A DNA stretch of 64,000 nucleotides from an uncultured Spirochaetota bacterium (GTDB taxonomy: Bacteria > Spirochaetota > Spirochaetia > SZUA-6 > CAVTHK01), in assembly GCA_963734495.1 (NCBI GenBank), contig CAVTHK010000009.1, positions 128,001 to 192,000 on the forward strand, written 5' to 3'. The position numbers and the translations under genes were made by a program. The notes beneath the pieces were generated by a model. It searched no databases and had not been told where the DNA came from. It worked only from the letters and a program-made list of their open reading frames with translations. Shown here one piece after another: positions 3,393 to 44,104 of this stretch (within the stretch, counting starts at the first letter, position 1; every line of letters begins with the position of its first letter).

Positions 3393-3410
3393 CGGCGGAA
3401 AGGAAAGGCA

Positions 3411-36488: not shown

Positions 36489-37030
36489 GCTTCCTGGACC
36501 TGGTGCGGGCCCGGCACAGCGTGCGCAGCTACGACGCCGTGAGGCCCGTCGAGCGCGCGAAGCTCGACCGATGCCTCGAGGCCGCCCGCCTCGCGCCCTC
36601 GGCGAGCAACGCGCAGCCCTGGCGCTTCGTCGTGGTGGACGACCCCGCCGTGCGCGAGCGGGTGGCGCGCGAGACGTTCGGGGCGCTCGTGTCCTTTAAC
36701 CGTTTCACCCGGCAGGCGCCCGTGCTCGTGGTCTGCGTGGCGGAAGAGCGGAGGATGAGGACGCGCATCGGCGGGTTTCTCATGGGCCGCCGCTACTCGA
36801 GCATGGACATGGGGATCGCCGCCGCTCACTTCTGCCTCCAGGCGGTCGAGGAGGGGCTGGGGACCTGCATGCTGGGGTGGTTCGACGAGAAGGCCGTGCG
36901 CCGCGCGCTCGGCATTCCCGCGCCGAAGCGCATCGGCGTGATCATTGCGGTCGGCTACCCGGCCGAAGCGTCGGTGCGCCCGAGGGTGCGCAAGCTCCTC
37001 GACGACGTGCGCGCCTACAACAGGTACTGA
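36485..37030 (+). CDS. Nitroreductase family protein
   Basis: GTG overlaps the lysS stop. RHSVRSY; ARLAPSASNAQPW; GLGTCMLG; IAVGYP. Confidence 0.92.
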   Translation: MSFLDLVRARHSVRSYDAVRPVERAKLDRCLEAARLAPSASNAQPWRFVVVDDPAVRERVARETFGALVSFNRFTRQAPVLVVCVAEERRMRTRIGGFLMGRRYSSMDMGIAAAHFCLQAVEEGLGTCMLGWFDEKAVRRALGIPAPKRIGVIIAVGYPAEASVRPRVRKLLDDVRAYNRY

Positions 37031-37031
37031 G

Positions 37032-38294
37032 GTGTTCGAGCCCGCGCCTTCCGTGCGGGAGCCGCTCGCGGCGGGCCTGGTGCTGCGCGCCGTGGAGAGC
37101 GGCGGCGAGGTCGAGCGCCTGGCGGACTTTAACGGCCGCATCCACGGGGAGGACGTCACGGTCCTCACGCGACGGCTGCTCCTCGATCATCCGCGCACGC
37201 GCGCCCGTCATTGGCTGCTGGTCGAGGAGCCCTCATCGGGGCGCATCGTCTCGTCCCTCTGCCTCATCCCGTGGTCCATTCGTCTGGACGGCGTGGAGCT
37301 GCGGGCCGGCGAGATGGGTATCGTGGGCACCGAGCCGGAGCACCGGCGCGGGGGGCTCATCCGCGCACTCGTGGCGCGCTTCGACCGCATCCTCGCAGAC
37401 GAAGGCTTCGACCTCTCTCACATCCAGGGCATCCCGTACTTCTACCGGCAGTTCGGCTACCAGTACGCCGTCCCGCTCATCCCGGATCTCAGGCTTCCGC
37501 TCGACGCGATGCCGGAGGAGCCCGTCCCCGCGGGCGTGCGCTTCAGGCCGGCCGGCCCAGCGGACCTGCCGGCGCTGTCGGCCGCGTACACCCGGCTCGC
37601 GTCCTCGTCCGCCCTGTGGGCCGTGCGCGAAGAGGCGACCTGGAGCTACCTGCTCGGCGGCGAGACGGCGGGCGAGGGAGAGACCTGGTGCGTCGAGCGC
37701 GAAGGCGCCGTGGCCGGCTATTTCCGCACGCACCGCCGGGGCTTCGGGCAGGGGCTCATCGTAAGCGAGGCGTCTCCGCTCGGGGCGCGCCTCGACGCGG
37801 CCCTGCTCGCCGAGCTTTCCCGGCGCGCCCGTGCCGCAGGCAAGCCCTACGTCAAGCTGGAGATGGATCCCGCCTGCGAGGTCGCGGGCATCGCGCGCTC
37901 CCTCGGGGCGCACGCGATGCGCACCTATGCGTGGCAGATCCGTTTCGTCGACCTCGCGGCGCTGCTCCGCAAGCTGGCGCCCGCGCTCGAGCGGCGCCTG
38001 GAGGCGAGCGCCTTCGCGGGCCTCAGCGAGCGGCTGGTCGTGAGCCTCTACCGCGAGGCGTTCGCGCTGGACTGGAGGCGCGGCACGCTCGCCGCGGTTG
38101 AGCGGTTGCAGCCCCCCGCGGAAGCCGCGCCCGTGCAGCTTCCGCCCGAAACCGTCGTCCCGCTCCTGCTCGGCCACCGAAGCCTCCCCGAGCTGGCCGA
38201 CTGGCATCCCGATGTGCGGGTCGAGCCGCGCGCGGCCGCCCTGCTCGAGGCGCTCTTCCCGAAGCTGCGCTCGTACCTGTACACGATCTACTGA
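37032..38294 (+). CDS. GNAT acetyltransferase, Eis-like
   Basis: GIVGTEPEHRRGGL; GIPYFYRQFGY; SCP2-like C-terminus. Confidence 0.82.
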   Translation: MFEPAPSVREPLAAGLVLRAVESGGEVERLADFNGRIHGEDVTVLTRRLLLDHPRTRARHWLLVEEPSSGRIVSSLCLIPWSIRLDGVELRAGEMGIVGTEPEHRRGGLIRALVARFDRILADEGFDLSHIQGIPYFYRQFGYQYAVPLIPDLRLPLDAMPEEPVPAGVRFRPAGPADLPALSAAYTRLASSSALWAVREEATWSYLLGGETAGEGETWCVEREGAVAGYFRTHRRGFGQGLIVSEASPLGARLDAALLAELSRRARAAGKPYVKLEMDPACEVAGIARSLGAHAMRTYAWQIRFVDLAALLRKLAPALERRLEASAFAGLSERLVVSLYREAFALDWRRGTLAAVERLQPPAEAAPVQLPPETVVPLLLGHRSLPELADWHPDVRVEPRAAALLEALFPKLRSYLYTIY

Positions 38295-38356
38295 CGCGCT
38301 TTTATGGGTAGCGCTTCTGGTCCGCAAGGCGCGGGTACGCCGCTACGCCGCGGCCG

Positions 38357-38620
38357 TCAAGTGGCCTCAAGCAAGCCGCTGACCGCCAGGTCGTAGTTCG
38401 GCTTCGTCCCGTCCCACAAAGGCATGTTGACGTCAGGGCCAAGGTCGAGGCCGCGCTCATAGGCCCATTCGCGCATCCAGGTGACGATGTCGTCCACCCG
38501 CTCCTGCGGCGGATTCTGCGCAAGCGACCTGCCGGAGGGCGAGTGGAAGAGGAGCTCGCCATCTGCGCCGGTGCTGATGGTCCAGCCCCCCTCATGGACC
38601 AGGCGATGATGGAAGGTGCA
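38357..38620 (-). pseudogene. 3' fragment of the DUF222-HNH endonuclease gene, split by the RIT element
   Basis: Translated by hand: CTFHHRLVHEGGWTISTGADGELLFHSPSG...DGTKPNYDLAVSGLLEAT*. It continues the HNH motif of the 5' part in frame. Confidence 0.88.
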
Positions 38621-38648
38621 TTATGCCGACCGCCGGATTATGCCGACT
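38618..38648 (+). repeat. RIT left terminal inverted repeat
   Basis: GCATTATGCCGACCGCCGGATTATGCCGACT, containing two TTATGCCGAC units. Confidence 0.93.
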
Positions 38649-38714
38649 TCGGTGGTCCACGGCCTATCGGGTCGCGGTGAAGAACGGTTTTCTCGGCTTG
38701 GGCTGGCGGCATAA

Positions 38715-39710
38715 TCAAAGCGTGCTGAGAAAGGCCAGCAGGCGGTCAGGAGGTCGGTAACGGCGGGCGGCCGCGAGGCTGGGAGCTGTCTTCGCCAGGG
38801 CCCGTTCCTTCGCGGCGAGGTCGACTGCGAGATAGACGTGGGTGGTTTCCACCGACTCGTGTCCGAGCCACAGGGCGATGACCGCGGAATCGATGCCGGC
38901 CTCGAGCATCCGAACCGCTCTGGTGTGCCGAAGAACGTGGGGGGAGACGCGTTTGTTGGCGAGCGAGGGACAGGAGGCGGCTGCGGCCTTGCTGGCATGC
39001 CTGTGCAGCCGCTTTTCGACGGCGTCGCGGCTCATGAAACCGCCACGCTGGCTTGGGAAGAGCGGATCCGTGGGCTGAGCGGGCTGTGCCCTGAGCCAGG
39101 CTCGCAGGACGCCGACGGTCTCTTTCCTCAGCGGGGTCATTCGCTCCTTCCGCCCCTTGCCCATGCAACGGACGTGGGCCCCGGGCCCTTCGAGTTCCAA
39201 GTCGGCCTGCGTCAGCCGAGTGATCTCGGAGACACGCAGTCCGGTCTGCTCGGCGAGTAGGAGCAGAGCGTGGTCGCGGCGGCCGATCCAGCTGGAGGTG
39301 TCCGGTGCCGCGAGCAAGGCATTGATCTCCTGCTGGGTGAGGAACTCGACTGTCTTTCGGTCGAACCGCTTCTGGGGGATCGCCAGCACGCGCTGGATCA
39401 ATGCGCTGTGCTCGGGAACCTCGGTGGCCGCGTAGTGGAAGAAGGCGCGGATAGCCGACAGTCGCGCGTTGCGCGAGCGGGGGGAGTTGTTCCGCTCGGT
39501 CCCCAAGGAGTCGAGGAAGGCGGTGACCATTGGGGCTTCGAGGTCGGCGAGCAGGAGGTCTGAGGGTTTTTTCCCCAGCTCTTTCTCCGCGAATCGGAGC
39601 AGCAGCCGGAAGGTGTCGCGGTAGGCGGCGATGGTGTTCGGGCTGGCTTGGCGTTGCTTGCCGAGCCGCACCAGGAAGAATGCCTCGAGAAGGGGTGCGA
39701 GGGCGCTCAT
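38715..39710 (-). CDS. Tyrosine recombinase, RIT third gene (RitC)
   Basis: SPNTIAAYRD; TGLRVSE; GKGRK; HVLRHT; WLGHESVETTHVY. Confidence 0.94.
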   Translation of the reverse strand: MSALAPLLEAFFLVRLGKQRQASPNTIAAYRDTFRLLLRFAEKELGKKPSDLLLADLEAPMVTAFLDSLGTERNNSPRSRNARLSAIRAFFHYAATEVPEHSALIQRVLAIPQKRFDRKTVEFLTQQEINALLAAPDTSSWIGRRDHALLLLAEQTGLRVSEITRLTQADLELEGPGAHVRCMGKGRKERMTPLRKETVGVLRAWLRAQPAQPTDPLFPSQRGGFMSRDAVEKRLHRHASKAAAASCPSLANKRVSPHVLRHTRAVRMLEAGIDSAVIALWLGHESVETTHVYLAVDLAAKERALAKTAPSLAAARRYRPPDRLLAFLSTL

Positions 39711-40630
39711 GTGTGCACCTCATGGGAGCGCCGGCAGCGCTCGCTGACCAAGGCGAGAAGCTCCGGAACCGCGGTCAGATACCAGTAGGTCATGGTCGGG
39801 TTGAGGTGGCCCAGGTAGGTCGACAGCAGTGGCAGCCTTGATTCCACGTCGACACCGCAGCGATACCAGCCGATGAGCGTGCGGACGGCGAAGGTGTGGC
39901 GGAGGTCGTGGATGCGCGGGCGGCGTGGGCTGCGGTTGGCGAGACCCGCCCGGTCGATGAGGCGATGGAAGCGCAAATGGACGTTGGCGTAGATGAGCGG
40001 CTTGCCGGCTCGCGAGAGGAACAGACGCGAGGAGTACTGGATGGGCAGGAGGCGGTCGCGATTGCGGGCATAACGGCCGAGGGCCTCGACGCTCGACGGG
40101 TGAAGCGGGATCTCGCGGGACTTGCCGAACTTTGACCCACGCACGACGAGCAGGCCTCGGTCGTGGTCGAGGTCACGGCGGTCGAGCCTTATGGCCTCGC
40201 CCACACGCATGCCTGTGACGGCGAGCAGGGCGAGAAGGGTCGCGTCGGTAAAGGCGCTGTGGTGATCCCGCTGTGAGCGCGCCGCCTCAAGGAGCCTGTC
40301 GATGTCGTCCTTAGAGTAGATGTAGGGCCTCAGGCGCCGGGATGCGGGCGGCAGAAGATGATGAGGCGGGACCTCGGTGCGGGGGTCAAAGGACTGTGCG
40401 TAAAGAGCGAACTGGCGGATGATGCCTAAGCGTGTGGCCCACCACCGGGGCGATGCCGCGGCCGGTTTGGTAGCCCACTGGAGGGCGAGCTTCGTCGTGA
40501 TCGAGTTGCTGCCGGCAGCGAGCACTGAGTTGACGAACTCGTGCAAGCGCCTGCCGACGTGCTGGAGCTTGTACCCCGTGGCGTGACGGGTGGCGAGGTA
40601 GTCGTCGAGGATCTGGTGGAGGTTGCTCAT
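39707..40630 (-). CDS. Tyrosine recombinase, RIT second gene (RitB)
   Basis: TGMRVGE; SKFGKSR; HDLRHTFA; LSTYLGH....TYWY. Confidence 0.94.
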   Translation of the reverse strand: MSNLHQILDDYLATRHATGYKLQHVGRRLHEFVNSVLAAGSNSITTKLALQWATKPAAASPRWWATRLGIIRQFALYAQSFDPRTEVPPHHLLPPASRRLRPYIYSKDDIDRLLEAARSQRDHHSAFTDATLLALLAVTGMRVGEAIRLDRRDLDHDRGLLVVRGSKFGKSREIPLHPSSVEALGRYARNRDRLLPIQYSSRLFLSRAGKPLIYANVHLRFHRLIDRAGLANRSPRRPRIHDLRHTFAVRTLIGWYRCGVDVESRLPLLSTYLGHLNPTMTYWYLTAVPELLALVSERCRRSHEVHT

Positions 40631-41838
40631 GCCGCACCTCCGGGCCACGGCTGCGCGAGCTCGTGCAACCGGCAGTAGTCCACCTTGGCGTAGATCGCCG
40701 TGGTCGCGTGGTGGCGGTGACGGAGGGCCTGCGCGATCTCATCAAGGGTCGCTCCCCGGCGCAGCATCGTGGTGGCGGCGCTGTGCCGCAGCCGGTGAGC
40801 GCCGACCGGTGGCAGCTGGACGCGCTTGCAGGCGTCCCGGACGATAGAGGTAACAGCGCTGCTGCCGAGTGGGCCGTGGGGGACGTGATGGCCCAGGAAC
40901 AAGGAGCGCCAGCTCGTCTTCCTGCGCCGCCGCAGATAGGAGGCGAGCGCGCTGCCCACCTCCTCCAGAAGCGGCATGCGGTCCTCCCGCCCGCCTTTGC
41001 CACGGATGAGCAGGATGCCCTCCCGCCAGTTCACGTCGTCGAGGCTCAGAGACGCGACCTCCTTCGCTCGCAGTCCCATACGAGCCAGGAGCAAGAGGAC
41101 CGCGTAGTCGCGGCGGCCGAGGGTGGAGCGCCTGTCGCAGCTGTCGACGATGGCGTTTACTTGCTCGGGAGCGAGGTACTTCGGCAGTGAAGCCATGCGG
41201 CTGCCGGCGACCTTGGGGACGGCGCCCCTGAGGTCCATGGTGATGTCGCCCCGTAGCTGCAGATAGCGCAGGAATGAGCGAAGGCCGGTGAGCGTCGCCC
41301 GGGTCTGGTCGACGTTAGATCCCCGTGAACTGTCGAGGACGTAGCGCTTGACCGTAGCGCCGTCGAGCGAGGACAGATCCAACTCGCCAGACGGTGAGGT
41401 CTTCACCAGCAACTGCCGGGCTTCGGCGCGGTACTTCCGAGCCACACCAGGGGTGAGCCCCTGATCGTGGATCAGCGAGCCCTCGTACTCGCTCAACAGC
41501 TGCTCGAGTGGCGTCAGTGGGGAGAGTGGCGCGGCCGGGGAAGGCTCGGGTATCAGCCCCGCTCCGGCAAGGAAGCGGAGAACCGCAACGAGGCTTCCCC
41601 GGCTCAGGAACTGGGTGTAGCCTCTATCTCGCCTCGCGCAAAGGAACGAATCGACCTGCTCATCGGACAGGTCCTGTAGCCCGAGACTCTGCTCCTCGAG
41701 CCATCGGCTCAGATGACTCGCCACTCCCAGCAGATTCCTGCACGAGAGGATCGCGTAGCCCTGTCGAAGCAGGTCTGACCTGAGCTCTCGGACGTGATGC
41801 GCCAGGGGTCCGGAAAACCGGACGGTAGGAAACCGCAT
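40627..41838 (-). CDS. Tyrosine recombinase, RIT first gene (RitA)
   Basis: GGGAGG RBS, ATG 41838. RRDYAVLLLLARMGLRAKEV; GKGG; HRLRHS; LRH...TTAIYAKVD. Confidence 0.94.
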   Translation of the reverse strand: MRFPTVRFSGPLAHHVRELRSDLLRQGYAILSCRNLLGVASHLSRWLEEQSLGLQDLSDEQVDSFLCARRDRGYTQFLSRGSLVAVLRFLAGAGLIPEPSPAAPLSPLTPLEQLLSEYEGSLIHDQGLTPGVARKYRAEARQLLVKTSPSGELDLSSLDGATVKRYVLDSSRGSNVDQTRATLTGLRSFLRYLQLRGDITMDLRGAVPKVAGSRMASLPKYLAPEQVNAIVDSCDRRSTLGRRDYAVLLLLARMGLRAKEVASLSLDDVNWREGILLIRGKGGREDRMPLLEEVGSALASYLRRRRKTSWRSLFLGHHVPHGPLGSSAVTSIVRDACKRVQLPPVGAHRLRHSAATTMLRRGATLDEIAQALRHRHHATTAIYAKVDYCRLHELAQPWPGGAA

Positions 41839-41964
41839 CGTGACCTCCCTTCCCAACCAGTGGTCGGGACGAGGTCACTATGTGCCAAGCAGCCCGGATT
41901 ATGCCGCCAAGGGGATCGAGAAAAACCCTATCCGCGGCAGGAAAACCGCAGACTCGACCGAGTG

Positions 41965-42018
41965 AGTCGGCATAATCCGGCGGTCGGCATAATGCGCGTT
42001 ATGCCGACATCGGCATAA
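41965..42018 (-). repeat. RIT right terminal inverted repeat plus adjoining 20-bp quasi-palindrome
   Basis: 41965-41995 is the exact reverse complement of 38618-38648; 41999-42018 is TTATGCCGA-CA-TCGGCATAA. Confidence 0.93.
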
Positions 42019-42019
42019 C

Positions 42020-43019
42020 GTGCACAGCAATGCAAGGTTATCGAGCCTGGTCTCCCCGCCGTGCAGCCAGTGCTTTACGTGGTGCCCGTGCAGGAAGCTG
42101 GTGTGAGTGCACCCGGGAAAGGCGCAGCCGCGGTCCCGCAGCATCAAGGCCCGGCGGAGGGCGGGGGGAATGCTGCGGGTGCGGCGGCCGATGTTCAGAC
42201 TCTCCCCGTCCCCACCCACGGCCACCAGACCACAGTCACAGGCGACCCGCCGCAACGTCTCCGCGGAAACGCGCGTGCCATCATCCAGCGTAGCCGCCCA
42301 CTCTCCGTCCGCACCCAGCACCTCCTGCTCGAGATGAACCATGACCTGGAAGCGCTCCCCGCCGGTTCCCTTTACCGGATGGCCGGTCAGGAACGACTCG
42401 GCGAGCTCGACCGCGCCATCGGCCCGGGATGGCCAGCGCGTTTCCGAGGAAACGCCGGCGGCCTGCGCCGCCTGCTCGGGCTGCTCGGCCTGCACCTCCC
42501 GGGCGCGCTCGACGGCGCGCAGGATCAGGTCCGCCTCGTCGGGCTCCAGCACCAGCTCCAGCTTGACCATTCCCCCCGGCAACACCCGCCGATATACCGA
42601 CCGCTCCTCTGGCGCCGCCGCCGTCTCCTCAGCCGCCGCGGCCGCCGATAGCCCCGGCACATCCGCTCGAGCTGCGCCGCGGTTGCCACCAGCGCCATTT
42701 CCAGCAGCCTGCCCTCGTTCTCAGGTGTTGCCACTCGGGTGAGCGCGCGGACCTTGGCGTAGGAAAGGCTGGCCGAGCGGAATGCCTCGTCTATCGCGGG
42801 CAGCTTGCCGAGGGCGCGCGCGACCCGCACCTTCTCGCGTGCCGTCGCCGGATCCAGCCCGACTCGCCAGGCCAGCCAGTGGGCGCAGGAAACGGCGCCC
42901 TGGTCGCACCAGCCGCCGGCGTCGTCGAACTGCCTGATGCACTCGAGGAGCCTGTGAGTGGCGGCGTCGAGGTGCGCCGACAGGCTGGCGATCTCCTGAG
43001 CGAGCTGGTCTGTGGCCAT
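42020..43019 (-). pseudogene. DUF222 + HNH endonuclease (13E12-repeat-like), 5' part; frameshift near 42645; interrupted by RIT
   Basis: HLDAATHRLL..FD...GW...GAVSCAHWLAWR; VRVARALGKLP; LSYAKVRALTR; LRRVACD; LNIGRRTRSIPPALRRALMLRDRGCAFPGC; HHVKHW..GGETRLDNLALLC. Confidence 0.9.
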
Positions 43020-43025
43020 GACTAT

Positions 43026-43054
43026 ACTATACATATGTATGGCTTAACATGCAA
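43026..43054 (-). promoter_or_regulatory. Leaderless sigma70 promoter of the HNH gene, overlapped by a 12-bp palindrome
   Basis: Minus strand TTGCAT-N17-TATAGT, 6 nt before ATG 43019; ATACATATGTAT at 43029-43040. Confidence 0.65.
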
Positions 43055-43092
43055 GCCCCAGCGCCGCGCGTAGAATCTGCACGGAGGGTCGT

Positions 43093-43449
43093 GCCGCGGA
43101 CCCGACCCGGCTTGCTTCTGCATTTTCCGCCCTGGAGGCCGGCATCGTCGTCGAAGCCCGCAAGGGCGATGCGGGCGGCCGGGAGCTCGACCTGCTCCTG
43201 CACCGCGCCGGCATCGAGCTCGTGCCCCTGACCGGTTCCCAGCGCGAGATTGCGAGCCACGCCTGGCGCCGCTTCGGCAAGGGTCGCCATCCGGCGGGCC
43301 TGAACATCGGAGACTGCTGCTCCTACGCTCTGGCGAGGAGCTCCGGCGAGCCTCTGTTGTTTACGGGCGGCGACTTCGCCCGCACCGATCTGCCCGCGGC
43401 GCGCGTACTGACAATCGGCCTCCCACTTGTCGCGTGCACCACTCTGTAA
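43093..43449 (+). pseudogene. vapC: 5'-truncated VapC (PIN) toxin
   Basis: AADPTRLASAFSALEAGIVVEARKG..GRELDLLL..AWRRFGKGRHPAGLNIGDCCSYALA..EPLLFTGGDFARTD. No N-terminal D(S/T)S motif; in-frame TAA upstream at 43045. Confidence 0.8.
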
Positions 43450-43455
43450 TACAAT
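43427..43455 (+). promoter_or_regulatory. Toxin-antitoxin promoter with a short operator-like palindrome
   Basis: TTGTCG-N17-TACAAT, 6 nt before ATG 43462; TGTA-A-TACA overlaps the -10. Confidence 0.6.
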
Positions 43456-43461
43456 AGTAGC

Positions 43462-43674
43462 ATGAAGGAGCATATGAGTATTACCATGGACAGGTCCACC
43501 GCTGATCGTCTACGTCGATACTCGCGTCGCGAGCGGCGGTCCGTGAGCCAGGTAATCCAGATCGCCCTCGAGCGGTTCCTGGACGAACGCGTCCCCGCGG
43601 TCGACCGGATCGTCACGACTCCGGGCAGCTTCCGTGGTCAGTTCTCGCGCGAGGAGACCTATGGCACGCGCTGA
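43462..43674 (+). CDS. Ribbon-helix-helix (CopG-like) antitoxin
   Basis: KEHMSITMD..ADRLRRYSRRERRSVSQVIQIALERFL; overlaps the downstream PIN gene. Confidence 0.8.
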   Translation: MKEHMSITMDRSTADRLRRYSRRERRSVSQVIQIALERFLDERVPAVDRIVTTPGSFRGQFSREETYGTR

Positions 43675-44104
43675 GGGCCCAGTCCTGATCGACACGAACG
43701 TCCTGATCTACGCGACCCTCGAGAACGATCCGCGGTTCGAGCGCTCGAGGCAGCTCCTCGCTTCGCGGGACGGAGAGAAGTTCGTCTCGGTCCAGAACCT
43801 GGCCGAGATGTATCCGAACCTGACCGGTCCGAGGATGGCGAGCCCGGACACGCCCGTTGTGGCGCGGGCCAAGATCGAGTCCATCGCTGCGCTGCCGACG
43901 CTTCAGGTGCTGCCCCTGACAGGGGATGTTCAGAGCCTCGCGATGGAGCTGTGCGAGAAGCACAACCTGACCCGCCAGCGCTACTACGACGCTCAGCTCG
44001 TAGCGACGATGGTGGCGCACGGCATCAGGACGATCGTGACGGAGAACGCGCGCGATTTCGAAGATATGGAGGAAATCGAGGTCGTCGACCCGTTCCGCTC
44101 CTGA
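43661..44104 (+). CDS. PIN-domain (VapC-like) toxin
   Basis: GAGGAG RBS. VLIDTNVLIYA; QNLAE; YDAQLVATM; IVTENARDF. Confidence 0.9.
   Translation: MARAEGPVLIDTNVLIYATLENDPRFERSRQLLASRDGEKFVSVQNLAEMYPNLTGPRMASPDTPVVARAKIESIAALPTLQVLPLTGDVQSLAMELCEKHNLTRQRYYDAQLVATMVAHGIRTIVTENARDFEDMEEIEVVDPFRS

Follow-up and report, generated by a model that had tools for sequence, protein, structure and literature searches.

A RIT element in the HNH motif of a DUF222-HNH gene, and a candidate two-site route for its insertion

RIT elements, which consist of trios of tyrosine recombinase genes, have reportedly been catalogued since 2009. Described insertions lie in radC of an integrative and conjugative element in two species and in an IS66 tnpA gene (PMC2864759; extract, a word that here and below marks a source cited from part of its text), as well as in the Tn6049 transposase gene and in radC (PMC3414803). 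Their mobility awaits experimental demonstration, and their ends show 'some sequence variation' (PMC3414803). RIT coverage was raised in a mobilome in which circles could not be determined (PMC5737581; extract), and RIT movement is listed as not tested (PMC10214605; extract). Among the proteins, RitA is described as having two core-binding domains (PMC8138268; extract) and RitC as having an extra C-terminal helix (Smyshlyaev 2021; extract). Here, we describe a RIT element of 3,404 bp found inside a DUF222-HNH gene, at positions 38621-42024 of a 64,000-nucleotide stretch of contig CAVTHK010000009.1 from an uncultured Spirochaetota bacterium (hereafter the window). We put at roughly 0.78 the probability that this element integrated by site-specific tyrosine recombination at the Cys-Thr codons of the HNH motif, by way of a circle with two usable sites, and that its lineage homes to HNH-coding DNA.

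Within 38,621-42,024, three adjacent and co-oriented open reading frames on the minus strand code for proteins of 409, 307 (313 from an upstream GTG) and 331 residues; no fourth open reading frame was found within the 3,404 bp. Pfam Phage_integrase (PF00589) matched RitA, RitB and RitC almost end to end (E 9e-32, 3.7e-25 and 1.3e-34; profile positions 2-170, 5-167 and 2-169 of 172), and RitA, 409 residues long to the 331 of RitC, also gave a weak match to a SAM-like profile. The catalytic R...HxxR...H...Y residues were recognised by eye in all three translations (GLRAKE, HRLRH and IYAKV in RitA; GMRVGE, HDLRH and TYWYL in RitB; GLRVSE, HVLRH and HVYL in RitC), and the ritA/ritB and ritB/ritC overlaps are both ATGA (4 bp). 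As a reference we used PHG134/135/136, at 131,433-134,607 of the Cupriavidus necator plasmid pHG1, which have been named as a rit trio (Janssen 2010; PMC2864759; extract). BLASTP gave one-to-one matches to this trio, in the same order, with 38, 42 and 57% identity (E 4e-79, 2e-77 and 5e-130). Because of these gene-for-gene matches we identify the element as a RIT. The initial annotation had described an intact RIT element, and the three Phage_integrase genes, their ATGA coupling, the catalytic motifs and the ordered matches to pHG1 all bear this out. A scan of 38300-43200 detected no promoter-like site, and three terminator-like sites against 1.9 expected. The genes of the element and the parts of the interrupted gene are as follows.

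38357..38620, minus strand: C-terminal fragment of the DUF222-HNH gene, CTFHHRLVHEGGW...LLEAT, 87 residues and a stop codon, colinear with the paralogues
38715..39710, minus strand: ritC, tyrosine recombinase, 331 residues, 57% identity to the third pHG1 gene
39707..40630 (40648 from GTG), minus strand: ritB, tyrosine recombinase, 307/313 residues, ATG overlapping the ritA stop codon, 42% identity to the middle pHG1 gene
40627..41856, minus strand: ritA, tyrosine recombinase, 409 residues, 38% identity over 396 residues to the first pHG1 gene
42025..42660, minus strand: middle part of the DUF222-HNH gene, ending in ...HGGETRLDNLALLCT, DUF222 profile positions 147-306 and HNH profile positions 8-36 of 47
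42525..43034, minus strand: N-terminal DUF222 open reading frame, 169 residues, DUF222 profile positions 3-125, in a frame that differs from the rest of the gene
42625..42650, minus strand: approximate site of a frameshift of +2 nt against the three paralogues (alignment columns 518-519)

The upstream HNH reading frame runs ...GETRLDNLALLCT and then continues into the element. The gene is split between LLCT and FHHRLVH, with the Pfam break after position 36 of the 47 in the HNH profile. The insertion had been placed exactly inside the HNH motif, and the element does fall between the two halves of the motif, at its Cys-Thr codons. The genome carries three other paralogues, intact in contigs C2 and C13 and frameshifted in C7, the window gene being the fourth; the C7 paralogue reads LLCTRHHHLVHEGGW across the RIT target position. 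Following removal of 38621-42024 in silico, the gene aligned to all three with no gap up to 60 nt on either side of the junction. Excision had been predicted to restore the motif, and a failure of uninterrupted homologues to align across the junction had been named as what would speak against this; the uninterrupted paralogues do align. The window gene nonetheless differs from all three by +2 nt near 42,640, about 600 nt upstream of the insertion, and DUF222 profile positions 3-125 and 139-306 consequently lie in different frames, so that excision alone would not restore the open reading frame. We read the HNH gene as a landing pad. Taken by itself it is an ordinary case, a selfish nuclease pseudogene disrupted by a transposon. 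In the genome G001, from the same genus, the neighbouring genes are kept but the HNH gene is reduced to 70 nt of its 3' end, so that it offers no orthologous empty site.

Two further observations concern this gene family. The C7 paralogue (G000:C7:420182-420831) has a frameshift of its own, a 5-nt gap relative to the others, and its unoccupied RIT target position is GGTGCA. In G001, several contigs (C29, C53, C84, C131 and C171) end inside DUF222-HNH paralogues, and the family is highly repeated, with at least 12 matches.

The element lies between inverted repeats of 36 nt with 94% complementarity. Its ends are built from a box of 9-10 bp (10-bp form TTATGCCGAC; the box type is also written TTATGCCGA) present in eight copies, three in each of the terminal inverted repeats of about 100 bp and two in a palindrome. 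At each terminus two direct boxes start 17 bp apart, and a third, inverted box lies about 70-85 bp further in. An array of spacer, palindrome and spacer is found on the ritA side only. The ends are composed as follows, att denoting attachment sites.

38615..38620: overlap at the left junction, GGTGCA (target-type), which ends with the first GTGCA, 38616-38620
38621..38647, plus strand: ritC-side terminal inverted repeat, with direct boxes TTATGCCGAC at 38621-38630 and 38638-38647
38707..38714, minus strand: inner third box CGGCATAA of the ritC side, inverted relative to the terminal boxes
41899..41906, plus strand: inner third box TTATGCCG of the ritA side
41966..41992, minus strand: ritA-side terminal inverted repeat, with boxes GTCGGCATAA at 41966-41975 and 41983-41992
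41993..41998: second 6-bp spacer TGCGCG, the overlap of an att site unused here and used by a second copy in contig C1 (copy 2, described below)
41999..42018: palindrome of 20 bp, TTATGCCGACATCGGCATAA, formed by two boxes that face inward; copy 2 has it at the other end
42019..42024: overlap at the right junction, CGTGCA (element-type), which ends with the second GTGCA, 42020-42024

A GTGCA repeat at the two ends had been noted before. It is present, at 38616-38620 and 42020-42024, but the full unit is the 6-bp recombination overlap, GGTGCA at one junction and CGTGCA at the other, with five of the six bases shared. In the window copy (copy 1), the terminal-repeat junction keeps the target version, GGTGCA, and the palindrome junction keeps the element version, CGTGCA. 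That GTGCA is a target duplication made by a staggered cut was considered and rejected, as related copies have unequal overlaps (for example, CATCCA and CGTGCA in locus L024). No likeness of the target arms to the element boxes was obvious by eye.

The initial annotation had proposed a search of the genome for other copies and their targets. We found one more, in contig C1 and also of 3,404 bp, where it splits a gene for a Na+/H+-exchanger-type antiporter. After rotation of copy 1 by 26 nt the two copies agree at 3,403 of 3,404 bases, the sole difference being a synonymous change in a Lys codon of ritC; in this sense the insertion is indeed recent. In copy 2 the palindrome and CGTGCA are at the ritC side and the TGCGCG end is at the ritA side. 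The two RIT copies are the sole places in this genome that carry the palindrome. By their sequences, copies 1 and 2 are thus one circle opened at one or the other spacer. An antiporter orthologue from the same genus is colinear with the flanks of copy 2 only if 6 nt lie between them, and these 6 nt are those of the spacer, CGCGCA. As the six bases of the orthologue are those of the spacer used, we infer that the target of copy 2 matched the spacer at 6/6 positions. The terminal-repeat junction of copy 2 is exactly CGCGCA, and the palindrome-side junction has the same six bases and one extra base. In an independent soil run, one contig joins the element to the right-hand flank of copy 2.

These features suggest a model in which the mobile form would be a circle (or a tandem) whose junction would consist of inverted repeat, 6 bp, palindrome, 6 bp and inverted repeat. 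Such a junction would hold two mirror-image att/core sites that share the palindrome, and in each of them a pair of inverted boxes would enclose a 6-bp overlap. Crossover with a target recognised by some Rit protein could take place at either site, and the choice between them would yield permuted copies in either orientation. For copy 1, the element overlap CGTGCA would have met the target GGTGCA; strand exchange across the mismatched overlap, followed, we infer, by replication, would have left junctions that differ. The lineage would home to HNH-coding DNA, with multi-copy and partly decayed DUF222-HNH genes serving as landing pads rather than as regulated genes.

A scan for the junction pattern gave matches in nine metagenome contigs (L123-L131) and none in viral contigs. 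L128 (3,527 nt, without host flank) holds, in order, the C-terminal part of ritB, ritC, the array of inverted repeat, six bases, palindrome, six bases and inverted repeat, ritA, and the N-terminal part of ritB; from this order it probably represents the predicted circle or tandem junction. A complete junction is also present at 100-181 of L123, yet no recognisable rit gene follows in the next 1.7 kb. Contigs L125 and L127 have a single box only beyond the spacer. No information comes from L124, L126, L129, L130 and L131, which terminate in palindromes that fold back on themselves (at 96.6% in L126 and perfectly in the other four).

The same architecture was sought in 87 loci, comprising the best 80 of 451 confirmed RitB relatives (37-58% identity), six loci from relatives of the same taxonomic order and one other, with a detector for a 9+2+9 palindrome, a 6-nt spacer and then two boxes 17 nt apart. 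It was detected in 48 of the 87, the box sequences varying between clades. On the whole 5.38-Mb genome, the detector returned both copies and five GC-rich false hits. The palindrome side was that of ritA in 27 rows and that of ritC in 24, and both permutations were found within single genomes, namely the present one, Schaalia naturae (two copies) and the closed genome G007 (three against one). Both ends could be located in 45 rows. Here, the junction overlaps were identical at 6/6 positions in 19, at 5/6 in 6, at 4/6 in 13, at 3/6 in 4 and at 2/6 in 3, and the last two overlap bases were identical in 42. The overlaps thus agree where target equals element and are split between the junctions where it does not, which indicates that no target duplication is made.

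Some loci depart from this architecture. L026 (595-3955), in an IS256-type transposase gene, and L039 (3100-6500), in an IstB-like gene, retain the terminal repeats at either end with a direct overlap of 5/6, but have no palindrome and are 26 bp shorter than expected; the palindrome could have been lost by slippage between two directly repeated boxes. Conversely, in the short-read contigs L018 (whole contig) and L041 (3069-6535) each end of the element carries the palindrome, and the flanks of L018 are mutually inverted. Copies of the two permutations have probably been collapsed into one here; a genuine double form is also conceivable. In L117 (G007:C1:3166000-3174800), the palindrome-bearing end lies about 2.5 kb of other DNA away from the rest, which suggests an insertion into the RIT itself.

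The targets were tabulated for 43 loci, from Pfam searches with 236 pieces of translated flank and a further seven pieces at a relaxed threshold. For most loci, the flanking pieces on the two sides belong to a single gene, as halves that abut each other. The target classes, with the profile positions on either side of the break, were:

ArdC zincin domain (MPTase-PolyVal), at HExxH: break 51/55, 12 loci
HNH: 6 loci
IS256-type transposase (Transposase_mut): break 253/257, 5 loci (two with one flank only; L018 ambiguous)
IstB, at Walker B: break about 158/161, 4 loci (one with a single flank)
DDE_5 transposase: break 90/93, 2 loci
IS66 transposase: one flank, 1 locus
ISAZ013 transposase: one flank, 1 locus
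Large serine recombinase: between its two domains, 1 locus
HTH only: 1 locus
No family found: 10 loci

Position 36 of the HNH profile is the break point in the window copy and in L017, L020 and L022. In L017, the closest RitB relative among the matches listed, DUF222 positions 207-306 and HNH positions 4-36 are on the palindrome side. The flanks of L020 and L022 end in ...LDNLMAL and ...FWNLVAL (HNH 3-36, E 0.044 and 0.0011), and their other flanks start, as read by eye, with CEGHH and CACHH; L016 and L019 have C-terminal flanks that look HNH-like by eye. Moreover, in the closed relative genome G007 all four RIT copies are in NLxL/xC..HH motifs, the slash marking the break, six bases upstream of the position used by the window copy and with opposite polarity; L116 and L118 have weak Pfam HNH support, and L115 and L117 were read by eye only.

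In every target class, it is always one particular half of the target gene that lies next to the palindrome, irrespective of the direction of the rit genes. This rule was followed in 12/12 ArdC loci, in 4/4 of the G007 loci, in 4/4 of the HNH class with TTATGCCG/TTATGCGG boxes (TTATGC-type), and in three direct cases and one indirect case each for IS256 and IstB. Repeated hits in both orientations and permutations point to independent insertions and not to one inherited event. Other sites with a matching overlap are also used, as copy 2 illustrates.

At about 9056-9075 of L029 there is a solo 20-bp RIT palindrome with no adjacent rit genes, flanked on both sides by IstB Walker-B-like coding sequence in opposite directions. 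A footprint might account for it, as might rearrangement of one RIT copy with another.

The initial annotation had favoured an on/off switch, in which precise excision and re-insertion of the RIT would toggle the HNH nuclease for the benefit of the host. Several points speak for such a scheme: excision by tyrosine recombinases is normally precise, as it probably would be here; either leftover overlap, GGTGCA or CGTGCA, would encode Cys-Thr; all three recombinase genes are intact; and colinearity is restored upon removal. We nevertheless judge it very unlikely. The interrupted gene is not otherwise intact, the upstream +2 frameshift dividing DUF222 between two frames; it is one of four paralogues, two of them broken; the same element also disrupts the antiporter gene; and unrelated RITs occupy the same HNH position and analogous motifs in genes of mobile elements, as a homing parasite would. 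That independent RITs sit at this HNH position in other genomes argues for homing by the element and not for control by the host. In-place inversion, by which a single att site would be used and the body would flip between the junction site and the internal full site, seems to us improbable, although several points favour it: the two sites are mirror images in inverted orientation, the orientation rule (palindrome fixed to one gene half, rit genes either way) is exactly as predicted and agrees with it no less than with the two-site circle, and the sequences of the genome's own two copies can be derived under it. The overlaps speak against it. The terminal-repeat junction of copy 2 is the alternate-site spacer CGCGCA, with the same six and an extra base on the palindrome side, and in L117 of G007 both junction overlaps are exactly the internal spacer, GCCTTA. 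Also, no locus was observed in both orientations. We rate inversion below the two-site circle because under it the target overlap and the internal spacer would have to be identical by chance twice, in copy 2 and again in L117.

A different origin for the palindrome, as a site already in the genome or as an independent mini-element beside which the RIT inserted on either side, could be argued from the solo palindrome near 9056 in L029 and from the two RIT copies that have none. However, the HNH paralogues and the antiporter orthologue do not have these 26 bp, and colinearity is obtained only when the palindrome is removed too; Pfam positions abut across the whole insertion in the 12 ArdC loci and in other classes; and in this genome the palindrome is confined to the two RIT copies. 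We give this possibility hardly any weight. It is just as hard to credit that permuted copy 2 is a mis-assembly of a repeat. The genome is metagenome-assembled, 83% complete with 4.7% contamination, and an exact repeat of 3.4 kb is hard to assemble. Both copies, however, lie within large contigs and have unique flanks that form coherent gene halves, the contig from the independent run shows the right junction of copy 2, and the same permutation is found in an isolate genome (Schaalia naturae) and in a closed one (G007).

A number of points weigh against the two-site circle and homing to HNH-coding DNA as set out above. For L128, a tandem array is conceivable, as is, with lower probability, a false join made in assembly; its terminal overlap is not visible, the first 160 nt lacking. 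Twelve sequencing runs matched, and the assembled Logan contigs of four of them (X1, X2, X3 and X5) were compared with 37000-44000. They contained neither a joint across 38621-42024 nor the back-joint, hence no empty site or circle of the window copy, a result that is uninformative because the best run holds only 0.25 of the sampled words. A 3,654-nt skip with 10 foreign letters in X5 was considered as an empty site and rejected, as it represents a diverged homologue. As to targets, 10 of the 43 loci have no recognisable target family, and HNH calls were sub-threshold in Pfam at L020 (E 0.044), L022 (E 0.0011) and L116 (E 0.0083). In the clade formed by L047, L056, L068 and L071 (CTATG-type boxes), a 6-nt overlap, CGACCC, is shared, the flanks are unrelated and no Pfam family was found; these targets seem to be defined by the overlap alone. 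Homing is a preference and not a rule, since copy 2 sits in an ordinary antiporter gene, and the palindrome is not indispensable in an integrated copy, given its absence from L026 and L039. Both the frameshift of the HNH gene and the extra base on the palindrome side of copy 2 could be assembly errors, the genome being 83% complete. Lastly, the surveyed loci are interrelated and not fully independent.

Together, the window copy and its sister form a natural before-and-after pair, with exact ends, a 6-bp crossover region, two crossover sites and a sequence-defined target. We lean slightly towards a broader proposal, according to which RITs generally would be hyperparasitic homing elements. Each clade would enter one fixed position in the DNA for a catalytic or nucleotide-binding motif of other selfish genes (HNH, ArdC HExxH, IstB Walker B, IS256/IS701-type transposases). 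Entry would be by way of a circle with two mirror-image att sites that share the 20-bp palindrome, either of them usable, and the 6-bp overlap would tolerate mismatches and, with every hop, take over some bases of the target just left. Should the homing rule hold, RITs would be widespread parasites of other mobile elements that inactivate their enzymes, which would matter for plasmid and IS biology; annotation would also be affected, as many genes for HNH, ArdC, IstB and transposases that look 'broken' would be places where a RIT has landed. Homing through two sites would account for the 'variable ends' on record since 2012, and for why simple circle junctions went undetected. It would also give the multi-recombinase complex a concrete role, in which some protomers would occupy the boxes while others occupy the target arms.

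Near the interrupted gene, at 43462-44104 of the window on the plus strand, two overlapping open reading frames code for a ribbon-helix-helix-like protein of 70 residues (..RRSVSQVIQIALERFL..) and then a PIN-like protein of 156 residues (..LIDTNVLIYA..). By eye the pair looks like a VapBC-type toxin-antitoxin.

Among other systems with several tyrosine recombinases, Tn554 of staphylococci (TnpA, TnpB, TnpC) is likewise site-specific and makes no target duplication (PMC3414803; extract). Tn554 has two recombinases plus TnpC and a single target, att554, whereas the window element has three recombinases and no fourth open reading frame; RitA, RitB and RitC also form subgroups separate from the Tn554-type TnpA (PMC8138268; extract). 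SE/GInt elements (strand-biased circularizing integrative elements; genomic islands with three integrases) share three recombinase-like genes and target specificity, and their circular intermediate carries 6 bp from the flank (PMC10214605; extract), which resembles the mismatched overlaps found here. They differ in having a fourth gene, a cargo of tens of kb and a narrow host range, and dual mirror-image att sites are not described for them in the extract of that paper (PMC10214605).

A parallel of another kind is phiRv1 in REP13E12 of Mycobacterium tuberculosis, where a mobile element also lands in a multi-copy actinobacterial repeat gene. We take the REP13E12 proteins to be of the DUF222-HNH type, and we know of no description of the phiRv1 att site as lying in the HNH motif. 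A 'partial REP13E12 repeat protein' is listed beside the phiRv1 integrase (PMC1931498; extract). phiRv1 differs from the window element in using a serine integrase and in being a whole prophage. Inteins and group I/II introns insert at DNA coding for invariant motifs, which ensures targets in many genomes and copies. The likeness to RITs is by analogy, since a RIT destroys its host gene, there being no splicing, and uses tyrosine recombination.

The closest relatives remain the known RITs. PHG134-136 on pHG1 and ritABC of C. metallidurans CH34 have the same gene order, 4-bp overlaps and similar sizes (412/314/332 residues in pHG1 against 409/307/331 in the window). Terminal inverted repeats with an overlapping palindrome are also shared with the RITs described in PMC3414803, as is the occurrence of identical multiple copies in one genome, here two. 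The 3,404 bp of the window element fall within the usual RIT length of about 3.4-3.5 kb, and its 4-bp gene overlaps within the usual 4-8 bp. On pHG1 the same palindrome type adjoins an IS66 transposase gene. At 18345-29191 of L122 (pHG1), partial and inverted copies of another RIT enclose a complete rit trio, and the IS66 transposase gene next to the nested trio abuts the RIT palindrome; this nest is the 'maze' of Janssen 2010 (PMC2864759; extract). The literature searched contained no paper on permuted RIT ends, on dual att sites, or on homing to ArdC, IstB, IS256 or HNH; Ricker et al. 2013, which lay outside the search, may cover part of this. The rules for end structure and targets may be new. 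The element itself is a RIT of established type, not distinct as a kind from those already known, in a high-G+C genome and with an HNH target.

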